Of a DNA stretch of 64,000 nucleotides, positions 5,618 to 64,000 are shown in pieces. How positions within the stretch are numbered: position 1 is the stretch's first letter; every line of letters starts with the position of its first letter. Position numbers and translations under genes: made by a program. Source of the DNA: Eubacterium sp. (lineage in GTDB: Bacteria; Bacillota; Clostridia; Christensenellales; CAG-314); contig CAVJWC010000001.1 of NCBI GenBank assembly GCA_963653425.1, positions 55,596 to 119,595 on the forward strand, in the 5' to 3' direction. The notes beneath the pieces were generated by a model. That model did not search any database. It worked only from the letters and a program-made list of their open reading frames with translations, and was not told the DNA's origin.

Positions 5618-7468
5618 ATGAAATATACGGAAATTGAATTAAGAGAAAAAACTTTAACCGAACTCAGAAAAATAGGCGGTTCCGTTGGCGTTGCCAAATA
5701 CAGCAGAAAGCAGGCGGAAGAACTTATCAGCCTTATTCTTGCCATTCAGGAAGGCGAGGTAGAACCTGCCGTTATGAAACGCGGACGTCCGAGGAAAGAC
5801 GCTCATTCTCAGTCGGACTTTTTGCAGGAACAGAAAAAAGAGAGTAGAAAATCGGTTGCGGAAGTTTCTCAGCCCGTACAGAGAGTTACGGTCTATCCGA
5901 CCAAGCCTCAGATTCGCGATTTTACCGAAGAAAATCAGAGAAGAAACGAAGGCTGTATAGATTTCAGAAACAACGGCGAGAACGGCGGAAATTACCAGAA
6001 CCGTCAGAAAGTCGGCTCTTACGACGATTACGTAAATTCGCGGATAGTTCAGCCCAAACAGCCTAAAAGAGATCCTCTCCGTCAGAAATCTTCGGGCGAC
6101 TGGAAAATCAAAACTCCCGATGGAACTGAAAAAACCGTTGCCGAGCAGACGGACAGAAGTCAGAACGTTCAGGACGGCATAAAGAACTTCGACGTCGCGG
6201 ACGGTTATCAGAATCCCGCCAAGTCCGATAATTACGAAGGTCAATCCGTATCTTACGGCGAAGAGAGTTGGAGAGAGAGCAGAAAGCCGATAAAATACGA
6301 AGAATCTTTTGACGTTCAGCAGGATTTCGACGTTTCGGGAATAGTAGAAGTAATGCCCGACGGATACGGCCTTTTAAGAACGGTAAACTATTATCCGTCC
6401 GACGCAGACGTTTATATTCCCGCAATGCAGATCAAGCGTTTCCAGCTCAGAAACGGCGATAAACTTAACGTCCGCGCAAGACCTTTCCCCAACAACAGAT
6501 ACCCTTCGGCTATATTCATTTACTCAATCAACGACGTTCCCTGCGATCAGCTTACCGCACGCGTGAATTTCGAAGATCTGACGCCCATATATCCGATGGA
6601 AAGAATAAGACTTGAAGACGGTCAGCATCAGTTCGACGTGGCTTTAAGAGCGATAGACCTCGTTTCTCCCATAGGAAGAGGACAGAGAGGACTTATCGTT
6701 TCTCCGCCAAAGGCAGGTAAGACGGTTCTTTTGAAGAGCATAGCTCAGGCAATACTCAGAAACTACGACGATATTCACGTTATCATACTTCTCGTGGACG
6801 AGCGCCCGGAAGAAGTCACGGATATAAGAGAAAGCGTAGACGGAGCGGAGATAGTTTATTCCACCTTCGATATGACTCCCGAACACCACACGAAAGTTGC
6901 CGAACTCGTAATGCAGAGAGCAAAGAGAATGGTGGAAATCGGAAAGCACGTGGTTATATTGCTCGACAGTATCACTCGTCTTTCGAGGGCTTACAATCAG
7001 GTTACCGAACAGACGGGAAAGACTCTTACGGGCGGTCTTGACAGCGCGGCGCTTTACGAACCCAAGAGATTCTTCGGCGCGGCAAGAAACATCAAGGGCG
7101 GAGGAAGCCTTACCGTTATAGCGACGGCTCTCGTGGATACGGGAAGCAAGATGGACGATATAATCTACGAAGAATTCAAAGGCACGGGCAATATGGAAAT
7201 TCACCTGAGCAGAAAGATGTCCGAAAGAAGAATTTTCCCGGCAATCGACCTGAATAAGAGCGGAACGCGCAGAGAGGAATTGCTTCTTAACGCCAACGAA
7301 CAGGAAGGAATGTGGATTTTAAGACGTATTCTTTCCAAAGCCGACAACGCCGACGCAACCGAAAAGATTCTGGATATGCTTCTTGCAACCAAAACCAACG
7401 AGGAATTCCTCGAATACGTCCGTTCAAAAATCGGTACGAAGCAAAACAAACCCAATCCTACGCTATAA
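5618..7468 (+). CDS. rho: transcription termination factor Rho with ~190-aa N-terminal insertion domain
   Basis: Rho_N helix bundle (aa 1-45), CSD-like [14 protein letters not shown] at aa 241, Walker A SPPKAGKT, Rho C-terminal ATPase motifs. 616 aa against about 420 for minimal Rho. Confidence 0.95.
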
Positions 7469-7573
7469 ACTTACAGCGTAAAATATGACGCTATAAACTT
7501 ATAGTGCAGAATATGACGATAGATAATGAAACTATAATTCCCTACAGGGCTTTCAGCCCAAACACCGACCCAA

Positions 7574-7607
7574 AACCGCAACGCCCGAAATCGTTGCGGT
7601 TTTTTTT
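7574..7607 (+). terminator. intrinsic terminator downstream of rho
   Basis: AACCGCAACG-cccgaaat-CGTTGCGGTT followed by TTTTTTT. Confidence 0.85.
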
Positions 7608-7681
7608 GCCGAATTCAGACTTTTATTTGCGTTTGTTCTTTCCGCATTTTTCAGGAAATTTGCGGAAAAAAGCTATTTCTG

Positions 7682-7710
7682 TTGCATTATTTTTTGATTT
7701 ATGATATTAT
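7682..7710 (+). promoter_or_regulatory. sigmaA-type promoter for the heptad-repeat protein gene
   Basis: TTGCAT (7682-7687), 17 nt spacer, TATTAT (7705-7710). This implies a ~170-nt leader. Confidence 0.5.
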
Positions 7711-7890
7711 ATAGGTCATACGGAGAGGTATCCGTAAAAGGGTTGACGTTTCGGGCTTTTATCCGATTGTTTTCAGGCGCGTCGCGCGCCGGACGTTATA
7801 CCGTCGCATTTGGGGGAAGAACGGCGGAATATCGGTAAAATTACGGACAGGGCTATACAGCGAAACGTCTCATGGAAATGAGGATTAAAA

Positions 7891-9450
7891 ATGGCGAAAG
7901 ATAAAAACGAGTTGTCAACGGAAAAAGGCGCGCTTTTCAGATTGCCCGATTCTTACTTTGACGGCGTAAAAACGGAGAAAACGCTGGATTTTCTTAACGA
8001 CGGAGCAACTTATACGTTTACTCCGCAAAACGAAGCTTACGGAGAAGAAAAGCTTTCGGGCGATTCTCTGCGTGGCGACGTTATGGATTCAGAGGGCGAA
8101 AGCATAGGCGTTTTCGATTTCGACGGAGGGTATATTCCCGCAACGAAGAAGAAACAGCTTGCGCAAAAGCAGAAAGATCAGACAAAAGTGCAGGAAGAAG
8201 AGGACGAAGAACCCGTTAAACGCAGGGCTTCGGACGGCATTCAGATAGTAGACCTTCCCGTTGAGATAAAGCCCGCGTCGCAACAGATTCTGCCGACGGC
8301 TATCGGGGATAATTTCGGCGGTTCTCAGTTCAGAACGGCTGTTATCAACGGAGAAAGAGTAGTTTACGCGCCCATGGATTCCATGATGAACGGAGGAATG
8401 AATCCTTTCGGAATGATGACTCCCAACATCACCATAAACCCGCAGAACATTACGATAAATCCGCAGTCCGTCACCATGAACCCGAGCGTCGTTCAGATGA
8501 ACCCGGAAACCGTTACGATGAATCCCAACGTAGTTACGATGAATCCCGAAACGGTTACCATGAACCCCAACGTGGTACAGATGAATCCCGAGACCGTTCA
8601 GATGAACCCCGGGGTAGTAAATATGAACCCCGAAGTCGTTCAGATGCGTCCCGAAGTCGTACAGCTCAAAACCGACGCCGTTCAGATGAAGACCGATTCG
8701 GTCAATATGGCTCCTACGGAAGTTAATATAGAAAAACCCGAAACGAATACCGATCGTCAGGCTTTACCGAACGCGAAGGAGGGAGCGGGCGCCGAAACTC
8801 AGACCGTTCCGCTCGTAAAAGACGAAAAACCTTCTTCCGAACAGAACAACGCCGATTTGTCCGCAAGAGCGGGATATAAGGTTAAAGTCGAAGACCAGCA
8901 GATAAGCCTTGACGACGAGTTTATAAGCACTATTTCAACCCGTATCGTGGGCGAACTCAAAAAAGACGGCGTCGTTTTCTTCAGTAATTCTTCCGCAAAT
9001 GCGGCTGTGGATTCGGGCTTTAAGTACGGAGCCGAAGAAGAACCCGAAGCTGAAAAGAACGAAGAAACTTCAGACCAGGAGGACGCGGACGATAAATCCC
9101 TTTCGCAGAAAGCGGGAGCTTCCGACAGAGGACGTTCGCGTACGTCCGAAGGCGTGAAAGTGGAAGTTCTGGACGAGGAAGATTCTCATAAACCCGTAGA
9201 ACCCGAAATAATCGAACTCGGAGGTGCGCCCGTCACGCCCGCGTCTCAGGCTAAATCCGAAATGAAGAAGAAGCCTTCTTTCCTTAGAGATTTGTTCAAC
9301 AGAATTCTCTCGATTTTTAGAGGCGGAAGGAAGAATACCGAAAACGGCGTTAAGTCTCTTCCCGCAGGAAATTCGGGTAAAAAAGCTTTAAGCGAAAAAA
9401 TCGAAGGCGCGGATAAACTCGGTTCGGTTTACGACTATTTCGGAGAATAA
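7891..9450 (+). CDS. hypothetical acidic protein with 15 tandem V-x-M-N-P-x-x heptads
   Basis: 519 aa, RBS GAGGAT, no signal peptide or TM. Heptad array at 8428-8742. The C-terminus contains an amphipathic stretch PSFLRDLFNRILSIF. No family recognised. Confidence 0.75.
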   Translation: MAKDKNELSTEKGALFRLPDSYFDGVKTEKTLDFLNDGATYTFTPQNEAYGEEKLSGDSLRGDVMDSEGESIGVFDFDGGYIPATKKKQLAQKQKDQTKVQEEEDEEPVKRRASDGIQIVDLPVEIKPASQQILPTAIGDNFGGSQFRTAVINGERVVYAPMDSMMNGGMNPFGMMTPNITINPQNITINPQSVTMNPSVVQMNPETVTMNPNVVTMNPETVTMNPNVVQMNPETVQMNPGVVNMNPEVVQMRPEVVQLKTDAVQMKTDSVNMAPTEVNIEKPETNTDRQALPNAKEGAGAETQTVPLVKDEKPSSEQNNADLSARAGYKVKVEDQQISLDDEFISTISTRIVGELKKDGVVFFSNSSANAAVDSGFKYGAEEEPEAEKNEETSDQEDADDKSLSQKAGASDRGRSRTSEGVKVEVLDEEDSHKPVEPEIIELGGAPVTPASQAKSEMKKKPSFLRDLFNRILSIFRGGRKNTENGVKSLPAGNSGKKALSEKIEGADKLGSVYDYFGE

Positions 9451-9538
9451 AACGAGTAACGATAAAAGCGCGTGAAACCGCCGTTAGTCGCAGACAGGAA
9501 GGCAACTAAGGCTTTTACGCCACATAGGAAGTGAAATA

Positions 9539-10738
9539 ATGAAGATTGAAACACGGATCGAATTCGGCGGATTTACCGATAACCTCAGATCGCTCGGAAA
9601 ATACAACGACAAACAGGTTATTATGGACGGGATTATCCCGGGAGAAACCGCAGACGTCGTTCTTACCGATAAAATAGACGAGGTTTATTACGGAAAACCC
9701 GTAAAAATCGTTAAACCGTCGAAATTCAGAGTAAAACCGCCCTGCGAGTATTATGATACCTGCGGAAACTGTTCTCTGCAACATATCGACTATCAGTTTC
9801 AGGTCGAATCCAAGCTTAAAATTCTTGGTAAAAAGCTTGCTCCTTTCGATAAAGAGGTAACCGTTCTGCCGGCAGAGAAGGTCTTTTTCCCTTATAAATA
9901 CAGAAATCACGTTTCGCTTTATTTTTCGCACAAAAAAGACAGGATCACTCTCGGCTACAAAGATTTGCGGACGGGTTTAGTGACGGATATCGATTCCTGC
10001 GCCGTTTGCGATAAATGGATTGCAGTCCTTATCAAAACGGTAAAGAGTTTCGCGGGTAAGTTCAAGATCAGAAGTTTCAATCCCGTAACGGGCGAAGGCA
10101 AGCTTATTTCGCTTAACGCTATTTTTACGGACAACAGACTTATTCTCGCTGTCCAGACGGCGAGCGAATCTCTTATGGGTTCGGCTTGGCTGTATAAGGA
10201 ACTTTGCGCCGTTTTCGGGAAGGTCAGCTTCTATACCTGTTTCAGAACGGACGCAGGTCTTCAATATAACTTAATCGGAGGCGAAAGAAGAGCTTCCGTC
10301 AGGTTCTGCGGTAAAGATTTACCCGTTAAACCCAATATGCGTCTTCCCGTAAACGATAAGCTTTTCGGTAAGCTTTTCCGCGCGGTGGAAGAAAAAATCG
10401 GCGAAGAATACACGCTCGTATCGGGCGATTGTTCGGCTACGTTAACCGAACTTCTCTCGGACAATCCCAACGTTTTCATTAAAAAATCGAACGATATGCC
10501 CGCAAAGAAACCTTTACAGAGTTTTATCGAACTCAAAGACGGTTTCGAGGACAATCAGCTCAGATTTATAAAGACTTTCAGAACGAAAAGACTTTTGATT
10601 CTGCTTAACGATTGCGATCGGATCGAAGAGACGGTAAAGACCGTCGTTAACGAAAAATATCGGAGCGTAACCGTTACGCCTTTCGATATGCAACCGCAAA
10701 CGAAGAAGCTTTCCGCGCTTCTTTTTTGCGAGACCTAA
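9539..10738 (+). CDS. RumA/TrmA-like protein (TRAM + Fe-S Cys cluster) with degenerate methyltransferase motifs
   Basis: The N-terminus has a TRAM-like fold pattern and CEYYDTCGNCSLQH plus a later C...C (DIDSCAVCDKW), as in 23S rRNA U-methyltransferases. The C-terminus retains PFDMQPQT, which resembles the family's terminal DMFPxT motif as I recall it. I cannot find the GxGxG or catalytic SCNP motifs. Confidence 0.6.
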   Translation: MKIETRIEFGGFTDNLRSLGKYNDKQVIMDGIIPGETADVVLTDKIDEVYYGKPVKIVKPSKFRVKPPCEYYDTCGNCSLQHIDYQFQVESKLKILGKKLAPFDKEVTVLPAEKVFFPYKYRNHVSLYFSHKKDRITLGYKDLRTGLVTDIDSCAVCDKWIAVLIKTVKSFAGKFKIRSFNPVTGEGKLISLNAIFTDNRLILAVQTASESLMGSAWLYKELCAVFGKVSFYTCFRTDAGLQYNLIGGERRASVRFCGKDLPVKPNMRLPVNDKLFGKLFRAVEEKIGEEYTLVSGDCSATLTELLSDNPNVFIKKSNDMPAKKPLQSFIELKDGFEDNQLRFIKTFRTKRLLILLNDCDRIEETVKTVVNEKYRSVTVTPFDMQPQTKKLSALLFCET

Positions 10739-10780
10739 AAAAACGAACCGCCCCAAGCGGACGGATAACGGAGACTTACA

Positions 10781-11704
10781 ATGAATATTTTGGTTTCGGG
10801 CTTAGTGAACATAGAAACTTCCGTACCTGTGCGCGGATTTCCCGTTCGCTATTACCCGATAGATTATCTGTTCGGAAGCGTTACGAGTACGGTTTCGGGC
10901 GTAGGCTTCAATATAGCCAAGGCTTTGTCGCGACTGGGCGACGAAGTGGATATGGTATCCCTTATAGGCAACGATTTTTACGGCGATTTTGCGCTGAAAA
11001 AGCTTAAAGAGTGCGGTATAAACACTCGTCTCGTGAGAAAACAACTCGAACTTACCTGCCATTCGGTAGTGCTTTACGATAAGGACGGAAGCAACCAGAT
11101 TTACTGCGACCTTAAAGACGTGCAGAACCAGCCTTACGTGCAGAATACCGATAAGGCTCTTATGAGAAGCGAACTTGCCGTTCTTTGCAACATCAACTTT
11201 TCTCGGTCGCTTTTGTCGAGAGCAAAACAGCTGAATATTCCGATAGCTACCGACTGTCACGTTTTAAGCGACGTACACGACAGCTTCAACCTCGAATTTA
11301 TGAGATACGCGGATATTCTGTTCCTTTCAAATTCCGCTATTTCAGGTAGCGAATACAGCTTCATAAGGCAACTTGCGGCTACCTATTCGAGTAAGATTAT
11401 CGTAATAGGTATGGGCAAAGAGGGCGCGATGATGTATACGAGAGACAACGATACGATAAGACATTATCCCGTTCCCACCGACGAAAGCTTTGCCAATACG
11501 AGCGGAGCGGGCGACGCGCTTTTCGCATGCTTCGTGCATTATTACGCCAAGGACAAAAATCCCGAACGCGCTTTGGATTACGCTCAGGTTTTCGCCACGA
11601 GTAAACTTCATTCGCCTACTCCCGACGGAGGATTTTTAAGCGAAGAAGAGCTTGAAAACTATATCGGAAAGATCCGTCCCGCCGAGAAACAAGCCGAGAA
11701 ATAA
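10781..11704 (+). CDS. PfkB-family carbohydrate kinase
   Basis: 307 aa, C-terminal TSGAGDALFACFVHYY (PfkB signature 2). RBS ACGGAG. Confidence 0.85.
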   Translation: MNILVSGLVNIETSVPVRGFPVRYYPIDYLFGSVTSTVSGVGFNIAKALSRLGDEVDMVSLIGNDFYGDFALKKLKECGINTRLVRKQLELTCHSVVLYDKDGSNQIYCDLKDVQNQPYVQNTDKALMRSELAVLCNINFSRSLLSRAKQLNIPIATDCHVLSDVHDSFNLEFMRYADILFLSNSAISGSEYSFIRQLAATYSSKIIVIGMGKEGAMMYTRDNDTIRHYPVPTDESFANTSGAGDALFACFVHYYAKDKNPERALDYAQVFATSKLHSPTPDGGFLSEEELENYIGKIRPAEKQAEK

Positions 11705-11832: not shown

Positions 11833-12438
11833 TTACCAGTTAAACTGACGGATGCTTCCAACGACTTTACCTATAACCGAAATGTTTTCCGAGAATTCCA
11901 TATCGGCGTACTTTGGGTTTTCCGCGTGCAGAGTAACGTGGTCGTCGTGATAAAAAATGCGTTTTACGGTAACGTCGCCGTCGATGTAAGCCACGACGAT
12001 GTCGCCGTTTTTAGTGGAGCTGTCGCTGTCCACGATAATAAAATCGTCGTTGAAAATGCCCGCGCCTATCATACTGTCACCGCTGACTCTCAGAAGGAAA
12101 AGATTGTCTCCGCGGAAGATATTCCCGGGGAGAGAATAAAACTCTTCTATGTTTTCCGCCGCAAATATAGGCAGACCTGCGCTGACTCGTCCGAGTAAAG
12201 GAAATTTTCGTGTGTTCGTCGGAATTTCGGAATTTTTAAGGCTCAAAGAACGGTTGATGTTGTTCTTTTTGGAAATCTTTCCCATCTTTTCGAGCTTATT
12301 GAAATAATACTGAACGGTAGCGGTGGAGTTAAACCCCATGTTCTTCATAATATCTCTTACCGTAGGAGCGTAACCGTTTTTTTCTATAAAATCCTGAATG
12401 CGGAGAAGGACTTCTTCCGATTTATCCGAGCGTGACAT
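11833..12438 (-). CDS. lexA: LexA repressor
   Basis: 201 aa. Winged-helix N-terminus (IQDFIEKNGYAPTVRDI), S24 peptidase C-terminus with GDSM and VKR motifs. Confidence 0.93.
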   Translation of the reverse strand: MSRSDKSEEVLLRIQDFIEKNGYAPTVRDIMKNMGFNSTATVQYYFNKLEKMGKISKKNNINRSLSLKNSEIPTNTRKFPLLGRVSAGLPIFAAENIEEFYSLPGNIFRGDNLFLLRVSGDSMIGAGIFNDDFIIVDSDSSTKNGDIVVAYIDGDVTVKRIFYHDDHVTLHAENPKYADMEFSENISVIGKVVGSIRQFNW

Positions 12439-12501
12439 TTTCTACCTCCTTTCATTATCCCCGATTATTTGCAGTCAATCAATATAAAAACCGAAAGTTC
12501 G

Positions 12502-13003
12502 GCGTTTCGTTCGTTCTTAGCGATATTTTACGGAAATCGATCGGCATATTCGCCCTTAAACTTTTTCCCGATTCCCGTATACGATCCGTATAAAAACTGA
12601 ACGCCTACCGATTTTATACATTATACACTAATATTCCCGAACTGGCAAGCGTTTTTTTATGGCTAAAAACGTTTGTTTAATAAATTGGTCTTTGCGTTCC
12701 GTTTATTATCCCTGATTATCTTACGGAAACAAATCGGTTTAGCCTTCGTTTTACTCCCTCTTACGTATATAAAGTACGCCCTCAGCTCAAAGCTTCGGTT
12801 AAACTACCCACCAATGTGGCGATTTCTTCCGCGTAAAAACGCTACGCGCCACAGTTGCATATTTTTAGCGAATTAAAAGCGGTTACTGTGCTAATCGGCA
12901 ATAACGAATGTTGCGCTTAGCGTTCCGTTCGCAACACTCGTATTTTTTACGGAAACAAATCGGTTTAGCCGTGGTTACTATGCCAATCGGCGATAACGAA
13001 TGT
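12502..13003. repeat. composite intergenic repeat (three A units, two B units)
   Basis: A1 12694-12744 and A2 12920-12970 share an identical 10 bp (GCGTTCCGTT) and an identical 24 bp (TTACGGAAACAAATCGGTTTAGCC) around unrelated 17-bp cores. A3 12502-12544 is a degenerate copy. B1 12879-12911 and B2 12971-13003 are 29/33 identical. Confidence 0.85.
12620..12648 (-). promoter_or_regulatory. sigmaA-type promoter upstream of lexA
   Basis: Minus strand: TTGCCA (12648-12643), 17 nt spacer, TATAAT (12625-12620). About 180 nt upstream of the lexA ATG. Confidence 0.45.
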
Positions 13004-13017
13004 AATACCAACCGTTT

Positions 13018-14304
13018 TTATTCTTCGTTTGTTTTATCGGGCAGGAATATCTTTTTCTCGCCGTTATCCGGATAAGCCGAATATTCTTTCAGAAATTTTT
13101 CCGAGATAACGCAGTTGTAGACCACGCCGTCGCTAAGGACTTCGCGTTTGATTATAACGGCGTTTTTTTCTATCGAAGCAAGAGCCTTTCCGTCGGTAAA
13201 AGGAATTTTAAGTCTGCAATTTACCGATTCTCCGAAAAGAGCCGTTTCTATGCGTTTTTTCAGCGTAGTAAAACCCGTTTTTGTTTTTGCGGAAACGAGA
13301 AGCATATCCGAAGAAAAATATCTTTCTATAGCCGTTCTGTCTATGAGGTCGCATTTATTGAAAACCGTTATAACGGGAGCTTTACATCCGAGAGATTCAA
13401 GCGTTTTAAGAGTTACTTCTATGTGAGCTTCGTGATTTATATCGGAAACGTCGCATACGTTGAGAATAAGGTCGGCGTAAAGAGCTTCTTCGAGAGTGGA
13501 GCGGAAGGACGCTATTAAATCGGTGGGAATGTTTCTTATAAAACCTACCGTATCTATAACCACGGCAAAAGATCCGTTGTCGAAATCCAATTTTCTTGCC
13601 GACGGATCGAGAGTCGCGAAAAGCTGATCGGCTACGAAAACGTCCGACGACGTGAGAGCGTTCAGAAGAGAGGACTTACCCGCGTTCGTGTAACCCACGA
13701 GAGCCACGCAGGGAATATTGTTTCTGACGCGTCTTTTACGATGGTTATCGCGCGTTTTCTCCATTTCGTCGATACGGTTTTCGAGAACGGAAATTCTTTT
13801 TCTTATATAACGTTTGTCCGTTTCGAGTTTGGTTTCGCCCGGACCTCTCGTGCCTATGCCTCCGCCGAGACGGGAAAGTTCTTTTCTCGAACCTATAAGA
13901 CGGGGAAGGTTGTATTTCATCTGCGCGAGTTCGACCTGAAGTTTTCCTTCCGAGCTTTTTGCGCGCGAAGCGAATATATCGAGAATAAGCGCCGTTCTGT
14001 CGATTACTTTACAGTCTATGACTTTACTTACTTCCGCAATCTGAGAGGGCGTGAGTTCGTTTTCGAAAATAACCGCGTCTATATCGAGATTTTCCGCGTA
14101 ATGCGCGACTTCTTCGAGTTTTCCGCTTCCGAGTACGGTCTGGGGATCTATGCTGTTTCGTTTCTGAATGACCGTTTCTATAACTTCTCCGCCCGCGCTT
14201 TCCACGAGACTCGTGAGTTCGTCGAGAATATACTTTACGTCTTCGTTGTCTTTATATACGTAAACGAGAAGAACCCGTTCTTTTTCGTGCGTTGTTTCAT
14301 TCAT
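13018..14304 (-). CDS. hflX: GTPase HflX
   Basis: 428 aa. HflX N-domain followed by a G-domain with GYTNAGKSSLLNALT (G1), DTVGF (G3), NKCD (G4). Confidence 0.93.
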   Translation of the reverse strand: MNETTHEKERVLLVYVYKDNEDVKYILDELTSLVESAGGEVIETVIQKRNSIDPQTVLGSGKLEEVAHYAENLDIDAVIFENELTPSQIAEVSKVIDCKVIDRTALILDIFASRAKSSEGKLQVELAQMKYNLPRLIGSRKELSRLGGGIGTRGPGETKLETDKRYIRKRISVLENRIDEMEKTRDNHRKRRVRNNIPCVALVGYTNAGKSSLLNALTSSDVFVADQLFATLDPSARKLDFDNGSFAVVIDTVGFIRNIPTDLIASFRSTLEEALYADLILNVCDVSDINHEAHIEVTLKTLESLGCKAPVITVFNKCDLIDRTAIERYFSSDMLLVSAKTKTGFTTLKKRIETALFGESVNCRLKIPFTDGKALASIEKNAVIIKREVLSDGVVYNCVISEKFLKEYSAYPDNGEKKIFLPDKTNEE

Positions 14305-15385
14305 CTTTTTTGTCGTCGTCCTCCGTTTTTCTGTGAAGTTTGACTTTGTCCGAAGCTTTTTTCCTTATGTCGTCGGTAATCGCAGCGTAGTGCTTTTTCG
14401 TGGTGTTTACGTCTCTGTGTCCAAGAACGTCCGCCACGACGTAAATATCTCCCGTTTCGCGGTAAAGTTCCGTGCCGTAAGTGCTTCTCAGTTTATGCGG
14501 TGTGATTTTTTTAAGAGGAACGCTTAATCGGGAGTATTTTTTTACCAGAAGTTCTATAGAGCGCGCGGAAAGTCTTTCTTTACTCTTTGAAAGAAAGAGA
14601 GCGCGTTGGTTTTTATCTACTTCTTCGTCGGAAAGTCTTGCGTCTATATAGGGCATAAGAGCTTCTGCGACTTCTTCCGAAAAATAAAGAATAACCCGAT
14701 TTCCGCCCTTTCTCGTTACGACGAAAGAGTTATCTGTGAAGTTTATATCGTCCACGTTAAGTCCCACGCATTCGCTTATACGGATACCCGTGCCGAGAAG
14801 CAGAGTAACTATAGCCGTGTCGCGAAGTTTGTTTTTATCGTGAAAGGCTTTCTGATGTTTTGTCATTCCGCAGCCCGTTTCCACCGTTTCGAGAAAGTCG
14901 GAAATCTCGTTTCCTTTAAGTCTTATAATCTCTTTCTCGTGAATCTTGGGCGTGCTTACTTTGGAGGCTGCGTTATGAGAAATGTAGTCGTTTTTATACA
15001 GGAAATTCATAAGCGCGCGTATCGAAGAAAGCTTTCTTGCCTTTCCTTTTTCGCTGTTTTTCTGAACTTCGTCGTCTTTTTCGTATATCGAAACGTAACT
15101 TAAAAAGCATTCGATTTCAAATGCGGTTATGGTTTCCATATCCCTGAAACCGAACTTTTTTACGTCGTAATCGTTGAATCTGTCTATATTCCTTATGCAA
15201 TAATCGAAAAAGACTCTCAGGTCGTAAGCGTAATTCAGCCGAGTGAGCATAGTCGTGCGGTTTTCTATCGCAACGAAAAATTGCAGACAAAAGGCAGGCA
15301 GGTCGTTTTTAATAACGTAATCCAGCCTTTGTTTGTTTATAACGTCTCTTTGTTTGAAATAGTCGTTTCCGATGTTTTTATCCAT
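14297..15385 (-). CDS. tyrosine recombinase, XerC/XerD family
   Basis: 362 aa. C-terminal HKLRSTYGTELY...LGHRDVNTTKKHY (R..H-x-x-R..Y catalytic pattern). 8-nt overlap with hflX. RBS AAGAGG. Confidence 0.85.
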   Translation of the reverse strand: MDKNIGNDYFKQRDVINKQRLDYVIKNDLPAFCLQFFVAIENRTTMLTRLNYAYDLRVFFDYCIRNIDRFNDYDVKKFGFRDMETITAFEIECFLSYVSIYEKDDEVQKNSEKGKARKLSSIRALMNFLYKNDYISHNAASKVSTPKIHEKEIIRLKGNEISDFLETVETGCGMTKHQKAFHDKNKLRDTAIVTLLLGTGIRISECVGLNVDDINFTDNSFVVTRKGGNRVILYFSEEVAEALMPYIDARLSDEEVDKNQRALFLSKSKERLSARSIELLVKKYSRLSVPLKKITPHKLRSTYGTELYRETGDIYVVADVLGHRDVNTTKKHYAAITDDIRKKASDKVKLHRKTEDDDKKDE

Positions 15386-15510
15386 TTGTTTCGCCTCTTT
15401 TCGATTTTAACATTTTTTCGCGCCGTTGTAAAGTGCTTAGCTTAAAAATGTAATTTACATAGAAATTCCGTTAGACGACGGCTACCCGAACCGTAACGAC
15501 GTGAGCGACG

Positions 15511-15583
15511 CCGATAAAAACGGAGGAAAAACGCCGCCGATAAAAACGGAGGAAAAACGCCTGTAAAAACGGAAAAAACGACG
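15511..15583. repeat. tandem 26-bp repeat, about 3 copies
   Basis: CCGATAAAAACGGAGGAAAAACGCCG (15511-15536), a second copy 25/26 identical (15537-15562), then a degenerate third unit. Confidence 0.85.
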
Positions 15584-15588
15584 CCGAT

Positions 15589-15613
15589 TAAAAAAGGCTG
15601 CCCGAAGGCAGCC
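15589..15613 (-). terminator. intrinsic terminator of spo0A
   Basis: GGCTGCC-ttcg-GGCAGCC followed by TTTTTT on the minus strand. Confidence 0.8.
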
Positions 15614-43289: not shown

Positions 43290-44408
43290 ATGAAAAAACC
43301 TATATTGGCGGTGATTCTTCTTGTGTTGCTCGGCTCGGCTTTGAGCGCAGTATTTTGCCCGTTCAAAGCCGTTCTGACGTCTGCCGAGCAGTACGATTGT
43401 TCTTTATCGGACAACGAAAACCTTTACGCGTCGGGCGAAACCATTATAGATAAGATCGGTCAGGCTATCTTTAAGGGTAAAACCGTCGTCGGCGAAGTTC
43501 GTCTGGGAGGAATTCCTATCGGGATAAGTCTCGAATCGAGCGGAGTAAAAGTTATCGGAATAAGCGAAATAATGACGAAAAACGGCGTTCAGTGTCCAGC
43601 GATAGAGTCGGATATAAGAATAGGCGACGTGATAATCGGAGCTGACGGCGTTGAAATAAACAGTTCTCTTCGTTTAAGTCAGCTGGTCTTAGAAAGCAAC
43701 GGAGAGGAGATCGAACTTGAAATTATACGGGGAGAAAAACTAAAAAAGAAAATAAAACCGCTTTACGACGAACTTAGCGGAAAATACAAACTCGGACTCT
43801 GGACGAAAGAGGGCAGTAGCGGAATAGGCACGCTGACGTTTGTAAAAGAAGACGGACGGTTCGCGTCTTTGGGGCATCCGATAGTCAATCCCGAAACGGG
43901 AGAGATATATAAAATCAGCGGAGGAAGCGTTTATAAGTGCGTGATAACGGGAGCCGTAAAAGGCGGAAGAGGCAGAGCCGGAGAACTCAGAGGCGATTTT
44001 AAGGACGTGAAACTCGGAACGGTTTCTTCCAACGGGAAAATCGGCGTTTACGGAACGTTTACAAACCGTGACTATCTTAGTTATCCCAAGATAAAGATTC
44101 TTTCGTCCAAGTCGGTAAAACCAGGGAAAGCCTACGTTTATTCTACCGTGGAAGGCGAAAAGCCCGAACTATACGAAGCCGAAATAATCAAAGCTTCCGT
44201 TCAGAGCGGAGAAAGCGACAAAGGAATAGTCGTAAGAATTACCGATAAAAGACTTATCGAAAAGACGGGCGGTATCGTTCAGGGAATGAGCGGAAGTCCC
44301 ATTATTCAGGAAGGTTGTCTCGTCGGCGCGGTAACTCACGTTTTCGTAAGCGACGGAGTGAAGGGATACGGAGTTTACGCCGAATTTATGTACGACAAAC
44401 TGAAATAA
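43290..44408 (+). CDS. spoIVB: SpoIVB peptidase (S55)
   Basis: Signal-anchor, PDZ (IRIGDVIIGADGVEI), S55 motifs GTLTFV...SLGHPI and GMSGSPII. The ATG at 43290 (RBS GAGAGG) is preferred over the track start at 43242. Confidence 0.93.
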   Translation: MKKPILAVILLVLLGSALSAVFCPFKAVLTSAEQYDCSLSDNENLYASGETIIDKIGQAIFKGKTVVGEVRLGGIPIGISLESSGVKVIGISEIMTKNGVQCPAIESDIRIGDVIIGADGVEINSSLRLSQLVLESNGEEIELEIIRGEKLKKKIKPLYDELSGKYKLGLWTKEGSSGIGTLTFVKEDGRFASLGHPIVNPETGEIYKISGGSVYKCVITGAVKGGRGRAGELRGDFKDVKLGTVSSNGKIGVYGTFTNRDYLSYPKIKILSSKSVKPGKAYVYSTVEGEKPELYEAEIIKASVQSGESDKGIVVRITDKRLIEKTGGIVQGMSGSPIIQEGCLVGAVTHVFVSDGVKGYGVYAEFMYDKLK

Positions 44409-44442
44409 ACCGCATTATGTACGATAAATCGGAATAAACCGC
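44386..44442 (+). repeat. tandem duplication of the spoIVB 3' terminus (2 x 28 bp)
   Basis: 44386-44413 (includes stop TAA 44406-44408) against 44415-44442: 24/28 identical, and all 4 differences are transitions. Confidence 0.9.
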
Positions 44443-44630
44443 GTTGTTTCCTATAATAAGCCGTTCGGGTTTAAGTAAAAAACGGACGGCAAAAACTCTG
44501 TAAAATAACGCAAAAACGAGAAGCCCGCAAAAGTTATAATAACCGAGAAAGCCGAGAAACCGTAAAAGTTATAAACGACGGAGAAGTAACGCAAGAGAAA
44601 AAGTCATAAATAACGGAGAAAGACAATAAA

Positions 44631-51687: not shown

Positions 51688-51716
51688 TTGCTAAGAAATC
51701 CCGTAAGTTATATAAT
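51688..51716 (+). promoter_or_regulatory. sigmaA-type promoter for the phosphatase gene
   Basis: TTGCTA (51688-51693), 17 nt spacer, TATAAT (51711-51716). It overlaps the upstream candidate starts, which argues for the ATG at 51739. Confidence 0.55.
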
Positions 51717-51738
51717 GAAAGAAAAAACGGAGCAGAGT

Positions 51739-52902: not shown

Positions 52903-53020
52903 GCATAGCCGATACGAAAAAACAAATACAAAAAACAAACGAACGAAGAAAAACACAAGAAGAACGAAGAAAAATACGAAAAAGCAAAGAAAATACAAAC
53001 TAAAAGATACAAAAGAGCAA

Positions 53021-53059
53021 AGAAAAAGTCCCTGAGTTAACTTAACTCAAGGACTTTTT
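53021..53059. terminator. bidirectional hairpin terminator abutting the tRNA 3' end
   Basis: aaaaaGTCCCTGAGTTAAcTTAACTCAAGGACttttt, with one C-A mismatch. Confidence 0.7.
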
Positions 53060-57610: not shown

Positions 57611-57814
57611 CGCATCGGTTTCCTTTGTCGCAAAGCCTTAGCGAAAGCCTTTTTGTCTACCCGTTCGCTAAAACTCTTTCAGAGGCGAACGTAAGCCCGT
57701 TGTCTGACGCATTCAAAGCTATTTCCATTAACTAAACGGAGCGTAAAGTCTTCGCGAAAAACGACGAACTCAGCTCAGAAACGAAAACTGTTTGTAATTA
57801 CGAGGAAAACGGTA

Positions 57815-58334: not shown

Positions 58335-58535
58335 GCGAGCGGAGCAAACTGCAGACGTGTTTAATGAGCATAGTAAGCAACGCAGGCGATTTCTTATGAG
58401 CCGATAATTAGTCGGCGATTTTCAGCGAGCAAAGTAAGTTGCAGACGATTTTAATGAATGGATTAAGCAACGCAGACGATTTTTAATGAAAGAATAAGTA
58501 ACAGACGATTTTTAAGCAGCAGAGCAAGTACCTCA
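58335..58535. repeat. six-unit degenerate tandem repeat, about 30-bp period
   Basis: The core GCAGACG(A)TTTTAATGA recurs at 58351, 58382, 58412, 58441, 58472 and 58501, each preceded by AAGTAAGCAAC-like sequence. Confidence 0.85.
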
Positions 58536-58551
58536 ATAAAAATCACTATAT

Positions 58552-58577
58552 AAAAAAGGCTCCGCAAATGCGGAGCC
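58552..58577 (-). terminator. intrinsic terminator of the subtilase-LRR gene (possibly bidirectional)
   Basis: GGCTCCGC-attt-GCGGAGCC followed by TTTTTT on the minus strand. Confidence 0.8.
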
Positions 58578-58594
58578 TTCGCCTTTCGGCTTGT

Positions 58595-58706
58595 TTAATC
58601 GTTTGTTTTGCGATTGGCTATTTAATCGCTTTTACGATTGGTTGTTGTTGCTTAATCGCTTGTTTTACGATTTGGTTTTAATTAAATCGCTTATTTTACG
58701 ATTATG
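58595..58706. repeat. four-unit tandem repeat; first unit is the 3' end plus stop of the subtilase gene
   Basis: Plus-strand units TTAATCG(C)TT(G)TTTTACGATTGG start at 58595, 58622, 58652 and 58682 (period 27-30). The unit at 58682-58706 contains codons ...IIVK and the stop. Confidence 0.85.
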
Positions 58707-61700
58707 TTTTTGAAGTAAGTTCTCCAGATGTAGTTGGTGTAAGAAACGTCGCTGCTTACGTAAATCTTAACGCCTTCGTTTCCGTTTGCTTCTTCGATGT
58801 TATTTACGAACTGGTTATAGAGGTATCTTGCGCCGTCTCTGTAATAGCTCTGAAGAACGGGTGCCTTTTCGGATTTGAAGGTGATTTCGGTAAGAGCCGT
58901 GCAACCGAAGAATGCTCCGTCGCCGATATAGCCGAGGCTTTCGGGAAGAACTACGTTCTTAACGGTCGTATTTCCTGCGAAAGCTTCTGCGTCTATCTTA
59001 ACGATTCCTTCGGGAAGAGTTACGTTTGCTTCCGTTCCGAAGTATCTGTAGAGAACGGTCTTGTCTGCGTTATAGAGTCCGTCTTCGAATTCGGTGAGAA
59101 CTTCACAGCCGTTAAGTTCAACGGAAGCAATGTTGGTGGAACCGAAGAATACTCTGGAGAAGTTGAATTCTGCTACGGCTCCGAGCGTTACCTTTTCGAG
59201 GGTTTCTATTGCGCCGAAAGCTTTGTTTCCGAGGTATTCCGCATTGTTTACGGTAACTTCGGTGAGCTTGGTTGCATAGAAAGCGTTGTCGTCGATTTCA
59301 ACGAGATCGTCGCTCAGAACTATTTCTTTAAGTGCCGAGTAAGCGAATGCTTTTTCACCGATGCTCTGAACCGCGGGTAGAACTACCTTTTCGAGGTTGG
59401 GCGCGCCCATAAACGTTCCTGCGGTGATTGCGGTAATGCTTTCGGGCAGTACGAGTTCGGCTACGGTGCTTGCCGTCGGGTAAAGAAGGATAGCCGTTTC
59501 TTCCTTGTTGAAGAGAACGCCTTCTACCGAAGCAAAGTATGCGTTGTTCTCGTGAACGACGATTTCTTCGAGAGCGTCACAGCCCGTGAAGGTTCCGAGC
59601 GCGTCGAAGTAACCGAGTTTTTCGCCGATGTAGAAAGATTTAAGAGAGGTGCAGTATGCGAACGCGTTGTAGCTTTCTCCTTCGAAGCTCATTACCGATT
59701 CGATGGTTTCGAGAGCGGGGAAGTAAACCGATTCGATCTTGTCTGCATAGCAGAAGGAAGAACCGGTGAGAATCTGTACGTTTTCGAGTTCGAGTTCGGT
59801 AAGACCGGAGTTCTTAAACGCGTAGTCGCAGATAACCATTACGTTATCGATACCCGTAATTTCTCTGAGAGCGGGCGTATTGCTGAAAGCTCCCATACCT
59901 ATCGTCTGAGAATCGGTGTTGAGGAAGGTTACCTTTTCGAGTTTTTCGCAGTTTACGAACAGATAAGGCACGTCTGCGGTAATGTACGCAGGAACTTCGA
60001 TTTCAACGAAACCTGTGCCGGAATAGAAGCTTTCGTAAGTTTCCACTTCGACGTTTTCGCCGATAACGATTTCGGTAAGGTTATGGCAGTCCGTCCAGAC
60101 GCCAGAAGCTATTCTCTTGGTGTTTTCGCTCGTTACGAAGCTCGTTATAGCCGTTCCCGCAAGAGACTGCGTTTCGAATACTTCGATGTTTTCGATGTTG
60201 ATTTCTTTAAGGTTGGTGTTTCTGTAGAAGCAATATGCGGGCAAAGTCTTCAGCTGACTTCCGAGTTTAACTCCCTGAAGGAGAGTCTTGTCGTAGTCGG
60301 CAGAAACGAACGTGGATCTGAGATTCCAGTAATAACCTCCGCCGTATTCGCTTTCGGGACGGATACCGTAATCAGGTTTAACGTATTCGGGAACGTATTC
60401 GGGAATGGAGAATGCTCTTTCGTTAAGTTCGGTTATGGTTTCGGGCAGTTCGAGTACGCCGTCATAATCCCATGCAAAGGGCTTATACAGCGTGGTCTTT
60501 TCTGCGTTGTAAACGAGGCCGTTTTCGTCTTTAACGAGTTTGTCGTTACCTTCGAGAACGTTAAATCCGCCTGCAAGCAGATTGCTTCCGCCGAATGCTA
60601 AATTACCGATATAACCGATAGTTCCGCCGAAAGATACGTTGGAAAGCTTGGGACAGTCCGCAAACGCGAAACCGTCAATCATTCCTACGTCTTTTTCGAA
60701 GATAACTTCTTTAAGGCTCATAAGAGAAGAGGTTGCCTGACTGTACTGTTTGGGATAATACGGACCGTTATCCGAAATACCGCCTATACGGGTTACGTTG
60801 CCGTGGAAGACTATTCTTTCGAGCTTATCGCAGAAAGTCAGAGAGTAAGCTACTCCCATAGACGCACTGATGTGGCTTTCGAGAATATTAACGTTACCCA
60901 TAAATTCGACTTCTTTAAGAGAGTCGTTGAACATAACGGAACTCTGCATAAATTCGACGTCGCCGAGGAAGGTTACCTTTTCGAGGTTGGGACATACGGC
61001 TACGGAGAAGCCCAGACTGAGAGCGGTGCTTGCCTTGGGGAAGGTAAGAGTCTTAACGCCGAGACCGTTGAACGAGAAGGCTGCGTTGTTGATGCTGGTG
61101 TTTTCGAGATCGAGAGAGGTAAGCTTGGGAAGCGTACATACGGAAATGCCTTCCAGTCTTTCCAGAGTTGTGGGAAGAATGAGTTCAGTGAGGTTATAAA
61201 GATTCATAATGGAATAACCGTTTATGATCTTAACGCCTTCGGGAAGCACGATCTTGGTGATTCTGCTGTCGCCGTTGAAGACGAACGCGCCTATAGAGGT
61301 AACGCCGTCGGGTACTATAACTTCTCCGCCTTCACCGTTATAAGCCTTAAGAACGCCGTCTTCGATAACGAATTCTTCTGCTTGTTCTTCTTCGTTTTCG
61401 GAATTAACGACTGCGCCGTTCATTGCGACGGAGCTGTCAAAGCTGTTGTAAGTACGTACTTCCGTGTAGGAAGGATCGTTTACGTCGTAGTAAATTACGA
61501 AGTTGTCGGTGCGGTATTTAACTGCAAGAGTGCGGTTGTCGTTGCCAGTAATAACAGCGTTTGCGTTGTTTTCACCGCTATCGGGAAGTTCGATTTCGTA
61601 AACCGAAACGTTTCTTGCGTAGTCCACGAGCTGAACGGCAAAGGTGTTATTTACAACGTTAGCCATATAATCGGTAACGTCTATGGAGTAGGAGTAACTT

Positions 61701-64000
61701 CCGTTCTTAACGTCGCCGTAGCAGGGGAACATGAATCTGTAGAGATTGCTGTAACTGTCTTCCGTTCCGTAGGTAAGAAGACCCGTTGCCTGCAGATAGT
61801 GGTTGTCGTAAACGGTAAGATCAAGGTAAGTTCTGCCGTCTTCCGTTCTCCAGGCAGCCTTTTCAAGCGTGGGAGCTTCGAGGTCTACGAATACGGGCAT
61901 ATCCACAACCTGTCCTACGGGTTTGTCGTTGAAGTCGTAGGTGAAACTGAAGAGAATTTCTTCGTTATTTGCGAACATCATTGTTTCGGGATAGAATTCG
62001 CTGATGTTAAGCGCGTATCCGCCTTCGGTACCTACGCAGGCTTTTCTTACGTTATAGAAAACGTCCTGACCGAGACTTTCGTTGGTGTCGGTTTTGGAGT
62101 AACTGAGATAAATAGCCGAAGCGTTACGTTTGATACTGAGGTTAAGAGCGTTAAGCATTACCGTTCCGTCGAATTCGCCGTTTTCGTCAACGCCTCTGCC
62201 GATAGCGGCTTTGTCAGCTTTAGCCGTGGGAGCCTGGTATCCGTCGGGAAGGTCGTAAGAATATACGCCCGCGTTAATGGTCTGACTCGTCGTTTCGCCG
62301 TAAACCGAGGTTTCATAAACTATAAACGAAAGACCGAAGTAGTTGTCCCAGGTAGGAACGGCGCCGTCGGAAGCCGTGGGTTCGTATGCGGGAAGAGTCA
62401 TCCAGTCGCCGTAGAAAGCTATGTAAGGAATATGAAGATCTATTCCGTCTTCGTCGGTGCTTTCGAGAACCGCAAAGCCTTCAACGTAAATACCGTTGGG
62501 GAAGGTTTCGTCCATATAAGCTTTATGTTCTTCGGTAAGAGTGACAACTGCCTTTATTTTAAGCTTTTCGCCTGCTTCTACGGTGATTTCGTCGCCTTCG
62601 AGAAGTTCGCCGTTTACGTAATACTTAATTTCCGCGCCGTCGAGCATATATGCCTTTTCGGCGATCATAAGCTTATCTTCGCCCTTTGCGGTGTAGTAAA
62701 TGGATTTACCCGTAACTGCGGATTCTGTGAAGGTAAGTACGTTGAGTTTATATCCGAGAGCGTTTTCGCCGTCGTTTACAACGTTGAAGTTAAGAGTATA
62801 AATACCGTCTTTTTCGGTGTCGCTACCGAGGTTGAGTTTGGTTCTGTCCGAACCCGTTACGGTAATATAAGCGTCGGTTTCGAAAGCTCTCGTAATGTCC
62901 GCAAGACCCGAACCCTGTCTTCTGGGGGTAATGGGGTTGCCTTCGGCGTTTTCAAGAAGAATAGCCGTACTCATAAGACGTTGTATTGCGAGATTGGAAA
63001 TTTCCGAAGGAGTCTTATTCGGATAGGTCTGTTTAAGGTAGCCTTTAAGAACAGCCATAACGCCCGAAACGTTGGGGGTAGCCATGGAGGTACCGTCCAT
63101 ATATTCGTAGCCGTTGGTGCCGTATATCCAGTCGTAATACATAGGAACGGCAGAGTAAACGCCACCGCCGATACCGAGAATGTCTACGCCGATGGAAAGG
63201 TCGTTAAGAGCGCCCATCGAAGAGAAGTAAGAATATTCGATATAATAGTTGGAAGAGGTGATCGTAATGCGTTTGTCCTGCGCGTCAGCGAGCATAGTTC
63301 CGTCTTCGAGAGTGATGGTCATGGTGGGGATAGCGTCTTCGCCTACGACAGCGCCGAATTTTCCGATTTCTTCGCTTACGTTATCATAAAGAATACAAGC
63401 TATCGCGCCTTTGTCCGTGGCGTTCTGAACCTTTTCCGTAAAGGTGATTTCGCCTCTCTGAACGAGAGCGATCTTGCCCGTAACGTCAAGTCCTTCGTAG
63501 TCTTCGGGTGCGCCCGCGCCGGGTACTGCAACGTATTCGAAGGTTGCTTCGTCTTTTCCGTCAAGAATAGCGAGGAAATCGCTTTCTTTACTCGTTGCGG
63601 AATCTATAACGCCGTTTCTGCCGATCATTCTCGTGCCTTCGAAGTCGATGTAAACTCTCATAAGGTTGTTTGCGGAACCTACGGCAAAAGTGCCGTCGTA
63701 AGAAGCGGGGGAGCTTACCGTGCCGTTATCGGGATCGTCAACCGTGGAGAACGGATCGAGAGTGTCGGAGAACCACCAAGCCGTACCTACGTTACCCGTT
63801 GCGCAACACATAGTAAGACCTGCTTTTCTTGCAAGGTCAACGATGTCGTTTACGAACTGCTTCTGTTCGGATTTTTCGTAAGCGAAACCGCAGTTACTGC
63901 CGAGAGAAAGGTTAGCTACGTCAACGCCGAGAAGCACGCAGTCTTCTACCGCAGCGTAGATGTCGGTGTCGTTTGCGCCCTGCTGTCCTGCGCCGAAAAC
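58691..64000 (-). CDS. giant subtilase (S8) - PA domain - BspA-type leucine-rich-repeat protein (partial; N-terminus beyond the window)
   Basis: The frame is open to the window edge. It has the catalytic Ser motif DGTSMATPNVSG (Ser codon 63086-63088), the oxyanion region NLSLGS, and a PA insert (GKIALVQRGEITFTEKVQNATDKGAIACILYDN). From about 61350 downward there are about 900 aa of LRR_5-like repeats (...IGxxAFxxCxxLxxIxLPxxL...). Confidence 0.9.
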   Translation of the reverse strand, partial: VFGAGQQGANDTDIYAAVEDCVLLGVDVANLSLGSNCGFAYEKSEQKQFVNDIVDLARKAGLTMCCATGNVGTAWWFSDTLDPFSTVDDPDNGTVSSPASYDGTFAVGSANNLMRVYIDFEGTRMIGRNGVIDSATSKESDFLAILDGKDEATFEYVAVPGAGAPEDYEGLDVTGKIALVQRGEITFTEKVQNATDKGAIACILYDNVSEEIGKFGAVVGEDAIPTMTITLEDGTMLADAQDKRITITSSNYYIEYSYFSSMGALNDLSIGVDILGIGGGVYSAVPMYYDWIYGTNGYEYMDGTSMATPNVSGVMAVLKGYLKQTYPNKTPSEISNLAIQRLMSTAILLENAEGNPITPRRQGSGLADITRAFETDAYITVTGSDRTKLNLGSDTEKDGIYTLNFNVVNDGENALGYKLNVLTFTESAVTGKSIYYTAKGEDKLMIAEKAYMLDGAEIKYYVNGELLEGDEITVEAGEKLKIKAVVTLTEEHKAYMDETFPNGIYVEGFAVLESTDEDGIDLHIPYIAFYGDWMTLPAYEPTASDGAVPTWDNYFGLSFIVYETSVYGETTSQTINAGVYSYDLPDGYQAPTAKADKAAIGRGVDENGEFDGTVMLNALNLSIKRNASAIYLSYSKTDTNESLGQDVFYNVRKACVGTEGGYALNISEFYPETMMFANNEEILFSFTYDFNDKPVGQVVDMPVFVDLEAPTLEKAAWRTEDGRTYLDLTVYDNHYLQATGLLTYGTEDSYSNLYRFMFPCYGDVKNGSYSYSIDVTDYMANVVNNTFAVQLVDYARNVSVYEIELPDSGENNANAVITGNDNRTLAVKYRTDNFVIYYDVNDPSYTEVRTYNSFDSSVAMNGAVVNSENEEEQAEEFVIEDGVLKAYNGEGGEVIVPDGVTSIGAFVFNGDSRITKIVLPEGVKIINGYSIMNLYNLTELILPTTLERLEGISVCTLPKLTSLDLENTSINNAAFSFNGLGVKTLTFPKASTALSLGFSVAVCPNLEKVTFLGDVEFMQSSVMFNDSLKEVEFMGNVNILESHISASMGVAYSLTFCDKLERIVFHGNVTRIGGISDNGPYYPKQYSQATSSLMSLKEVIFEKDVGMIDGFAFADCPKLSNVSFGGTIGYIGNLAFGGSNLLAGGFNVLEGNDKLVKDENGLVYNAEKTTLYKPFAWDYDGVLELPETITELNERAFSIPEYVPEYVKPDYGIRPESEYGGGYYWNLRSTFVSADYDKTLLQGVKLGSQLKTLPAYCFYRNTNLKEINIENIEVFETQSLAGTAITSFVTSENTKRIASGVWTDCHNLTEIVIGENVEVETYESFYSGTGFVEIEVPAYITADVPYLFVNCEKLEKVTFLNTDSQTIGMGAFSNTPALREITGIDNVMVICDYAFKNSGLTELELENVQILTGSSFCYADKIESVYFPALETIESVMSFEGESYNAFAYCTSLKSFYIGEKLGYFDALGTFTGCDALEEIVVHENNAYFASVEGVLFNKEETAILLYPTASTVAELVLPESITAITAGTFMGAPNLEKVVLPAVQSIGEKAFAYSALKEIVLSDDLVEIDDNAFYATKLTEVTVNNAEYLGNKAFGAIETLEKVTLGAVAEFNFSRVFFGSTNIASVELNGCEVLTEFEDGLYNADKTVLYRYFGTEANVTLPEGIVKIDAEAFAGNTTVKNVVLPESLGYIGDGAFFGCTALTEITFKSEKAPVLQSYYRDGARYLYNQFVNNIEEANGNEGVKIYVSSDVSYTNYIWRTYFKNIIVK

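Follow-up and report, generated by a model that had tools for sequence, protein, structure and literature searches.

Why does the rho gene of this Eubacterium sp. end in two near-identical copies of its own last codons and stop codon, and does the duplicated terminus have a role of its own? The gene lies in a 64,000-nucleotide stretch of contig CAVJWC010000001.1 (the window), which had previously been read from its letters and open reading frames (ORFs) without database searches. That sequence-only reading described the duplication, pointed to parallels at the 3' ends of spoIVB and of a subtilase gene, and offered three explanations: slippage, scars of an element that targets gene 3' ends (attL/attR-like), or a lineage-specific element of the 3' untranslated region (UTR). 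Following up this reading, we consider it fairly probable that these are local, locus-specific, slippage-type tandem duplications of hairpin-bearing gene ends (~24-33 bp) and not a new mobile or regulatory system. The reading that fits best is local and harmless copy-slippage at gene ends that form small hairpins.

The two 28-bp units at the end of rho abut at 7487/7488 (Table 1). They are identical at 24 of 28 positions and scored 90 in Tandem Repeats Finder; the four differences, C15T, C18T, T20C and A22G, are all transitions. In a self-alignment anchored on the stop codon, the stop-spanning segment matched the DNA downstream of it with z = 6.8. Thus the duplication and its transition-only divergence, both claimed from the letters, were confirmed by alignment. 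Inverted-repeat analysis showed that copy 1 is a quasi-palindrome (TACGCTATAA-AC-TTACAGCGTA). A 19-nt pattern taken from the unit gave three matches against 0.09 expected in shuffles, one of the three being the palindromic unit hitting itself on the minus strand. A third, degenerate unit had been proposed to begin at 7516; this segment was no better than shuffled sequence (p = 0.38-0.61), and what remains there, after copy 2, is a short ACG.TA microhomology. The intrinsic terminator of rho starts 104 nt past the stop codon.

The stop-anchored self-alignment was applied to all 50 gene ends of the window, and three of them stood out clearly: z was 9.2 for the subtilase gene, 8.2 for spoIVB and 6.8 for rho, the next best gene end scoring 3.9. 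At spoIVB, the two copies abut at 44414/44415 and are identical at 24 of 29 positions, with five transitions as the only differences. The parallel with rho therefore held for the architecture and the substitution spectrum, while the unit proved to be 29 bp long and not 28 bp as first described. A third spoIVB unit was marginal (p = 0.044), and the TT.T.T that follows copy 2 is, like the ACG.TA at rho, too short to tell from chance at 14-17% divergence. The related arrangement that had been noticed at the subtilase gene was also found, in the form of about four contiguous units of ~24-33 bp with insertions and deletions; the first of these includes the gene's terminal codons (ATC GTA AAA) and its TAA stop (58691-58693), followed by GCGATT. 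In both rho and the subtilase gene, an intrinsic terminator lies ~100 nt past the stop. The units of the three loci are mutually unrelated in sequence and, searched across the 64-kb window with up to three mismatches, each matches its own locus only; likewise, AATCG-N5-10-CGATT occurs in the window only in the subtilase array. With unrelated units, a lineage-specific 3'-UTR element in the sense of a dispersed common sequence is not supported, and what is left of that proposal is a possible hairpin role at each locus, which folding models allow and which is taken up below.

Because the source is a metagenome-assembled genome (MAG), two strain haplotypes joined in tandem by the assembler had to be considered, an outcome that the sequence-only reading had itself named as a refutation. 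The unit lengths (28-31 bp) are close to common k-mer sizes, and the copies differ by transitions, as strain single-nucleotide polymorphisms (SNPs) often do. Such an artefact is nevertheless very unlikely, the least probable of the explanations we weighed, because the rho and spoIVB duplications recur unchanged in another assembly or another run. The rho copy pair is identical in MAG contig CAVHOF010000001.1 (GCA_963637745.1), which comes from an assembly other than the window's and would end near window position 16,600; over 6.4 kb, 7 SNPs separate the window from NCBI contig 16 of that MAG. An independent, unitig-based Logan contig (k=31) from a different run and strain (SRR19415678) has the spoIVB duplication with every base the same, and differs from the window by 43 SNPs elsewhere in 5.1 kb. 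In the NCBI contig, the length of the subtilase array is unchanged and a spacer has one SNP, and the copy number of the spoIVB and subtilase arrays is unchanged across the strains compared. Moreover, divergence amounts to 14-17% between the copies and to ~1-2% between strains.

Table 1. Gene ends, duplicated units, terminators and other short arrays of the window (window positions).
Feature	Position	Strand	Description
rho ORF	5618..7468	+	616 aa; from the ORF list; Pfam Rho_RNA_bind and ATP-synt_ab; homologues named Rho
rho TAA stop	7466-7468	+	gene end reads ...CCT ACG CTA TAA
rho copy 1	7460..7487	+	28-bp unit, ACGCTATAAACTTACAGCGTAAAATATG; holds ACG CTA TAA (T-L-stop)
rho copy 2	7488..7515	+	28-bp unit, ACGCTATAAACTTATAGTGCAGAATATG; abuts copy 1
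rho composite long inverted repeat	7455..7512	.	formed by both quasi-palindromic copies; 25-nt arms; stop codon within stem
rho intrinsic terminator	7572..7612	+	12-bp perfect stem AAAACCGCAACG/CGTTGCGGTTTT, then T run; inverted repeat and minimum-free-energy structure
SpoIVB-type peptidase gene	43290..44408	+	Pfam Peptidase_S55 (PF05580) and PDZ; TAA 44406-44408
spoIVB copy 1	44386..44414	+	29 bp; spans last 7 codons, stop and 6 nt
spoIVB copy 2	44415..44443	+	29 bp; abuts copy 1
Large subtilase / PA / BspA-type leucine-rich-repeat surface protein gene, 3' part	58691..63937	-	cut by window end
Subtilase tandem units	58592..58708	-	about four, with insertions and deletions; each an AATCG-loop-CGATT hairpin plus spacer
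Subtilase intrinsic terminator	58555..58580	-	3' of the four units; unit run ends there
26-bp tandem array	15509..15594	.	CGCCGATAAAAACGGAGGAAAAACGC; two 100% identical copies plus degenerate ones
A-rich ~21-bp array	52912-52999		starts 10 nt past stop of Y_phosphatase3 gene (51688-52902)
Intergenic array	58335..58514	+	2 x 90 nt (72% identical), about six 30-nt units; between convergent spoVAE and subtilase genes

On the slippage account, replication slippage or microhomology-mediated template misalignment, acting at quasi-palindromes on or beside the stop codon, would duplicate the segment. With copy 1 still closing the ORF, a duplication that runs from the last codons through the stop would leave the protein unchanged and be tolerated; inside a gene, the same duplication would shift the frame, so that the stop-including events would be the ones to survive, their copies later diverging by point mutation. 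We infer the slippage mechanism itself, the role of tolerance (with purifying selection elsewhere) in placing the duplications at stop codons, and a partial contribution of constraint on base pairing to the transition-only divergence. Slippage is supported by the head-to-tail copies, without a spacer, at three gene ends. Slippage would explain why the units are locus-specific and why neither a spacer nor an element separates the copies, and it would also explain the range of ages among the short arrays of the window, a copy-number difference between strains and the absence of the duplications from relatives.

The relatives with a syntenic rho carry a plain terminator directly past the stop, without a duplication. 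Stop-spanning duplications were found in 0 of 37 genes at the syntenic loci of four relatives (contigs L002 and L012-L014), and in 0 of 14 ORFs called on contig L015, from another strain, about half of these ORFs lying upstream of the window start; the species' own DNA scanned for such duplications amounts to 64 kb plus ~8 kb. The sole match of a genome-contig scan, UMGS692 (73% Rho identity), also has no duplication. Only the window's own protein exceeded 78% identity in a search with full-length Rho, and a search with the C-terminal 145 aa returned no near-identical fragment. Metagenome scans returned 0 matches to an exact 23-mer spanning the end of rho and, with a degenerate pattern for a 13-residue Rho peptide, only the known UMGS692-like species. 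A look-up via the upstream DUF1934 and lactamase_B genes yielded two Logan contigs, which end 270 nt short of the duplication. These databases thus held no intermediate relative that would tell which rho copy is ancestral. The Logan contigs from SRR13434599 and SRR13434600 both stop exactly at window position 7190, inside rho, and this shared end suggests a graph branch (a strain variant or a repeat) ~270 nt before the rho stop. In the relative represented by L012 (11895-11935), the rho stop codon lies within the 5' arm of an intrinsic terminator (TAAGGAAGGC...GCCTTCCTTA), which shows that stop-overlapping hairpins exist at rho in the clade without any duplication.

The noncoding DNA of the window, 8.3 kb in all, holds three further arrays that do not overlap a stop codon (at 15509, 52941 and 58335), with periods of 21-31 bp and identities from 100% to ~72%. 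The first is flanked by the stop of spo0A (15672, minus strand) and by a tyrosine recombinase gene that starts at 15385, and it looks like a very recent duplication. The A-rich array precedes a hairpin resembling a terminator (53028-53060) and a tRNA-Leu gene on the minus strand, and its best two copies differ at three positions, again by transitions. In the array at 58335, two units (62 nt) are absent from the strain of run SRR19415656, as observed at a contig end, and the boundaries of the difference lie within a repeated TAAGT. Homology of this array to the neighbouring subtilase units was considered and rejected, the two having one common 11-mer (z = 1.9). Directly past the spoVAD stop (57608-57612), the SRR19415656 strain has five extra bases (GTAA-TGCAA-CGCA vs GTAA-CGCA), possibly a tiny duplication beside the stop (AATGC/AACGC). 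The variety of arrays in the window points to a general, continuing mutational process.

Since the duplicated segments include the gene terminus, as do the att sites of elements that integrate at gene 3' ends, and since the units have a symmetry like that of a recombinase core (inverted arms around a short centre), we asked whether they could be the scars of an integrative element that brings a replacement terminus. A tyrosine recombinase gene does lie in the window (14297-15385). However, zero bases separate the copies, and after site-specific excision a single copy would remain instead of two. With unrelated units, the scenario would call for three different elements, each lost by its own precise internal deletion. 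Moreover, no integrase, recombinase, transposase or reverse transcriptase adjoins any of the three loci, and the recombinase, the sole one in the window, is ~7 kb from rho. It is probably a housekeeping Xer-type enzyme and not part of a mobile element, because its hflX-lexA neighbourhood is kept in a relative: the order lexA-hflX-tyrosine recombinase (window 11833-15385, minus strand) is conserved in L012 (12051-15042), whose Rho is ~78% identical over the conserved 60% of the protein. The window has three extra plus-strand genes (7891-11704) between rho and lexA. The 40 window proteins compared with Pfam were those of ordinary chromosomal genes (FakA, LexA, HflX, Spo0A, GlmS, MatE, thymidylate kinase, HolB, SpoVA proteins and others), with no transposase, reverse transcriptase or Y1 transposase among them, and the precomputed Pfam matches on other called genes near the loci included no Y1 transposase. 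We therefore regard scars of an integrative element as highly improbable. Among the three explanations first offered, slippage is thus the one favoured by the lack of a spacer, the locus-specific units and the other arrays, and the attL/attR-like one found no support.

We next consider whether the units fold. Compared to shuffled sequences, the rho units fold well, at -6.2 kcal/mol for copy 1 (p = 0.004) and -6.6 kcal/mol for copy 2 (p = 0.008). The four subtilase units have invariant AATCG/CGATT arms and loops of 6-9 nt (fold p 0.012-0.07). At spoIVB, unit 1 gave no fold and unit 2 a weak one (p 0.08). The rho unit being a quasi-palindrome, pairing between its two copies gives a long hairpin around the stop codon, with a predicted energy of -15.9 kcal/mol on the sense strand (z -4.3) and -27.1 kcal/mol on the antisense strand (z -6.3, six G-U pairs). 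A long hairpin forms at spoIVB because copy 2 pairs with the coding sequence at and just 5' of the start of copy 1, the copy 2 bases TGTACGATAAATCGG pairing with coding sequence CCGAATTTATGTACG at 44380-44394; it is predicted at -22.6 kcal/mol on the sense strand (z -2.2) and -22.7 on the antisense strand (z -2.4). The corresponding values for the subtilase hairpins are -19.8 kcal/mol (z -6.0) and -26.0 (z -3.5). The z-scores of these long hairpins refer to shuffled sequences.

These structures raise the possibility that the units are kept as functional RNA stem-loops at the mRNA 3' end, the duplication having built the structure and selection having tuned copy 2. Such a stem-loop, or a series of them, overlapping the stop and placed 5' of the true terminator, could act as a barrier to 3'-to-5' exonucleases or as a termination-sensitive structure, whose 5' arm is melted by the ribosome at the stop. 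The first role would resemble that of the repetitive extragenic palindromes (REPs) that stabilise transcripts.

Stop-spanning arrays make up 3 of the 6 noncoding arrays, compared to 15% expected when 28-bp duplications are spread evenly over ORF-preserving positions (P = 0.045); the enrichment at stop codons over other intergenic positions, which the earlier reading had implied, is thus marginal only, with six arrays. Several observations weigh against slippage and drift alone and speak for such stem-loops. Within copy 2 of spoIVB, each of the four internal transitions (ACAAACTGA to ATAAATCGG) gives a Watson-Crick pair with coding CCGAATTTAT (44380-44389), and the hairpin goes from -12.8 kcal/mol with a perfect duplicate to -22.6 kcal/mol with the real copy 2. 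Only 0.25-0.7% of random five-substitution sets equal this stabilisation (p about 0.005), on both strands. The differences between copies at rho and spoIVB taken together are transitions in 9/9 cases (P about 0.02 vs a background of 66%, or 44/67, among the between-strain SNPs of the species), a pattern that tolerance of G-U and A-C intermediates would produce. In the subtilase array, the 5-nt arms are invariant in 4/4 units while the loops and spacers have diverged, with insertions and deletions. Finally, since they have diverged so much further than the strains have, the copies must be old and retained, and they are unchanged in independent strains. The spoIVB changes, the 9/9 transitions, the invariant arms and the age of the copies suggest selection on structure atop a neutral origin.

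The same analysis gave results that do not fit selection on a stem-loop. At rho, the effect of the four substitutions on stability was indistinguishable from random on either strand (p 0.1-0.3). The loci show no consistent strand preference, the rho hairpin being the more stable on the antisense strand, the subtilase hairpins being favoured on the sense strand by z-score and spoIVB being equal on both; the asymmetry in G-U pairs, taken as a clue to the functional strand, was also inconsistent between loci. The structure is absent in relatives, no close relative that could supply covariation is present in the databases searched, and there is no Rfam match. Even the spoIVB changes may be read otherwise: a single-copy gene end that carries the copy 2 sequence is predicted to fold at -20.2 kcal/mol already, and therefore copy 2 may preserve the ancestral hairpin arm, the coding copy having drifted. 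A templated (quasi-palindrome) patch was rejected as the origin of these changes, the 3' arm not being an exact reverse complement and the unit length being kept. With a strong signal at one locus, none at rho and no agreement between loci on the strand, selection for stem-loops ranks second to slippage, as a tentative explanation that we think rather less probable, and a functional hairpin role at each locus is possible in terms of the folding models. A bolder version would have these gene ends form an undescribed class of locus-specific, stop-overlapping hairpin modules, built by repeated duplication of the terminus, kept by selection and coupled to translation termination. We find such a class doubtful. 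Equally doubtful is the mode of action that it would entail, in which the terminating ribosome would melt the 5' arm and so alter mRNA stability or downstream read-through, with the transition-only divergence and the compensating changes at spoIVB as the footprint of selection.

The palindromic units could also be sites at the DNA level, bound by a protein or used in recombination, with operator-like half-sites that were duplicated to give two sites. In idealised form the rho unit is a 22-bp quasi-palindrome (TACGCTATAA-AC-TTATAGCGTA), and a structure potential that is strand-symmetric or better on the antisense strand would fit a DNA-level feature. We consider this unlikely, since each locus has a different palindrome, the spacing of 6 to 9 nt between the subtilase arms is unsuited to a dimeric DNA binder, the units lie between stop codon and terminator and not in a promoter region, and there is no other copy in 64 kb. 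Slippage at hairpin-bearing gene ends thus remains the explanation that we prefer.

Rfam 15 gave no gathering-level match in the window; for 7400-7900, searched at an E-value threshold, the best scores were 17-22 bits against cut-offs of 40-90. A tRNA-Leu gene (anticodon aag) that ARAGORN places at 53060-53143 on the minus strand went unreported by Rfam at the gathering threshold, with either the whole window or a 351-nt sub-range as query, and this disagreement bears on how the negative Rfam results are to be read. Just 3' of rho lies a plus-strand ORF of 519 aa (7891-9450) with no Pfam match, in which ~10 tandem coding repeats of 21/42 bp (8425-8690) encode a 14-aa motif of the 'MNPNVVQMNPETV' type. 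It is preceded by a structured leader of ~270 nt (7620-7890) that includes a GC-rich palindrome, GGCGCGTCGCGCGCC (~7776-7792); the sole Rfam match of this leader, with Listeria rliD at its 3' end, is weak and sub-threshold (20 bits vs a 50-bit cut-off).

If slippage alone is at work, annotators working on this lineage should expect pseudo-termini just past the real stop codons and not mistake them for att sites or assembly errors. The case would then illustrate where compact genomes tolerate short duplications. If the hairpins are selected, they would provide a REP-like protection or regulation of mRNA 3' ends, built separately for each gene from its own terminus. This would be relevant to bacterial 3' UTRs and to the origin of RNA structures, with evidence that comes mainly from one locus, spoIVB.

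How do these gene ends compare with known systems? A clustered regularly interspaced short palindromic repeat (CRISPR) array was rejected, the copies being contiguous and without unique spacers. So was the template/variable repeat pair of a diversity-generating retroelement: the differences, C>T, T>C and A>G, fall at mixed bases and are not confined to adenine, and no reverse transcriptase domain was present among the 40 window proteins scanned. The attL and attR of an integrative element do not apply, with no element DNA or integrase between the copies, and readings as dif/Xer-like sites or integron attC sites were dropped on sequence, by comparison with the consensus sequences.

The closer likenesses are to hairpins and to duplications. 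As in the stop-overlapping intrinsic terminators of Firmicutes, the 5' arm of the hairpin is coding and includes the stop, an arrangement that L012 has at rho. Unlike intrinsic terminators, these duplicated hairpins are rich in A and T and lack a sense-strand U tract, being followed by AGAAUAUGACG; a terminator scan flagged only the minus-strand reading of rho copy 1. REPs stabilise mRNA and, near a stop codon, modulate translation. In enterobacteria and pseudomonads, REPs and the bacterial interspersed mosaic elements (BIMEs) that they form lie just 3' of genes, often in local arrays (PMC2817692). The units described here resemble them in being short imperfect palindromes able to form stem-loops in the 3' UTR (at rho and the subtilase gene, and weakly at spoIVB). 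REPs, however, are dispersed, follow one consensus, exceed 100 copies per genome and are linked to RAYT (Y1) transposases, whereas the present units are unique to their loci within the 64-kb window and include coding sequence and a stop codon.

Quasi-palindromes are known hotspots of slippage and template switching, and the latter process is known both to create RNA hairpins and to maintain them (PMC7202029, PMC8794818). With the duplications that such events produce, our gene ends have in common the head-to-tail copies of tens of bp and the hairpin-forming sequence, and perhaps a short microhomology at the junction, though one too short to tell from chance; a change of copy number between strains was seen in the neighbouring 58335 array only, at a contig end. 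They depart from such duplications and template-switch mutations in that three stop-overlapping events are present in 64 kb, are old (14-17% diverged) and have been retained. In addition, spoIVB changed by transitions at single positions, with the unit length preserved, and not by an exact templated patch.

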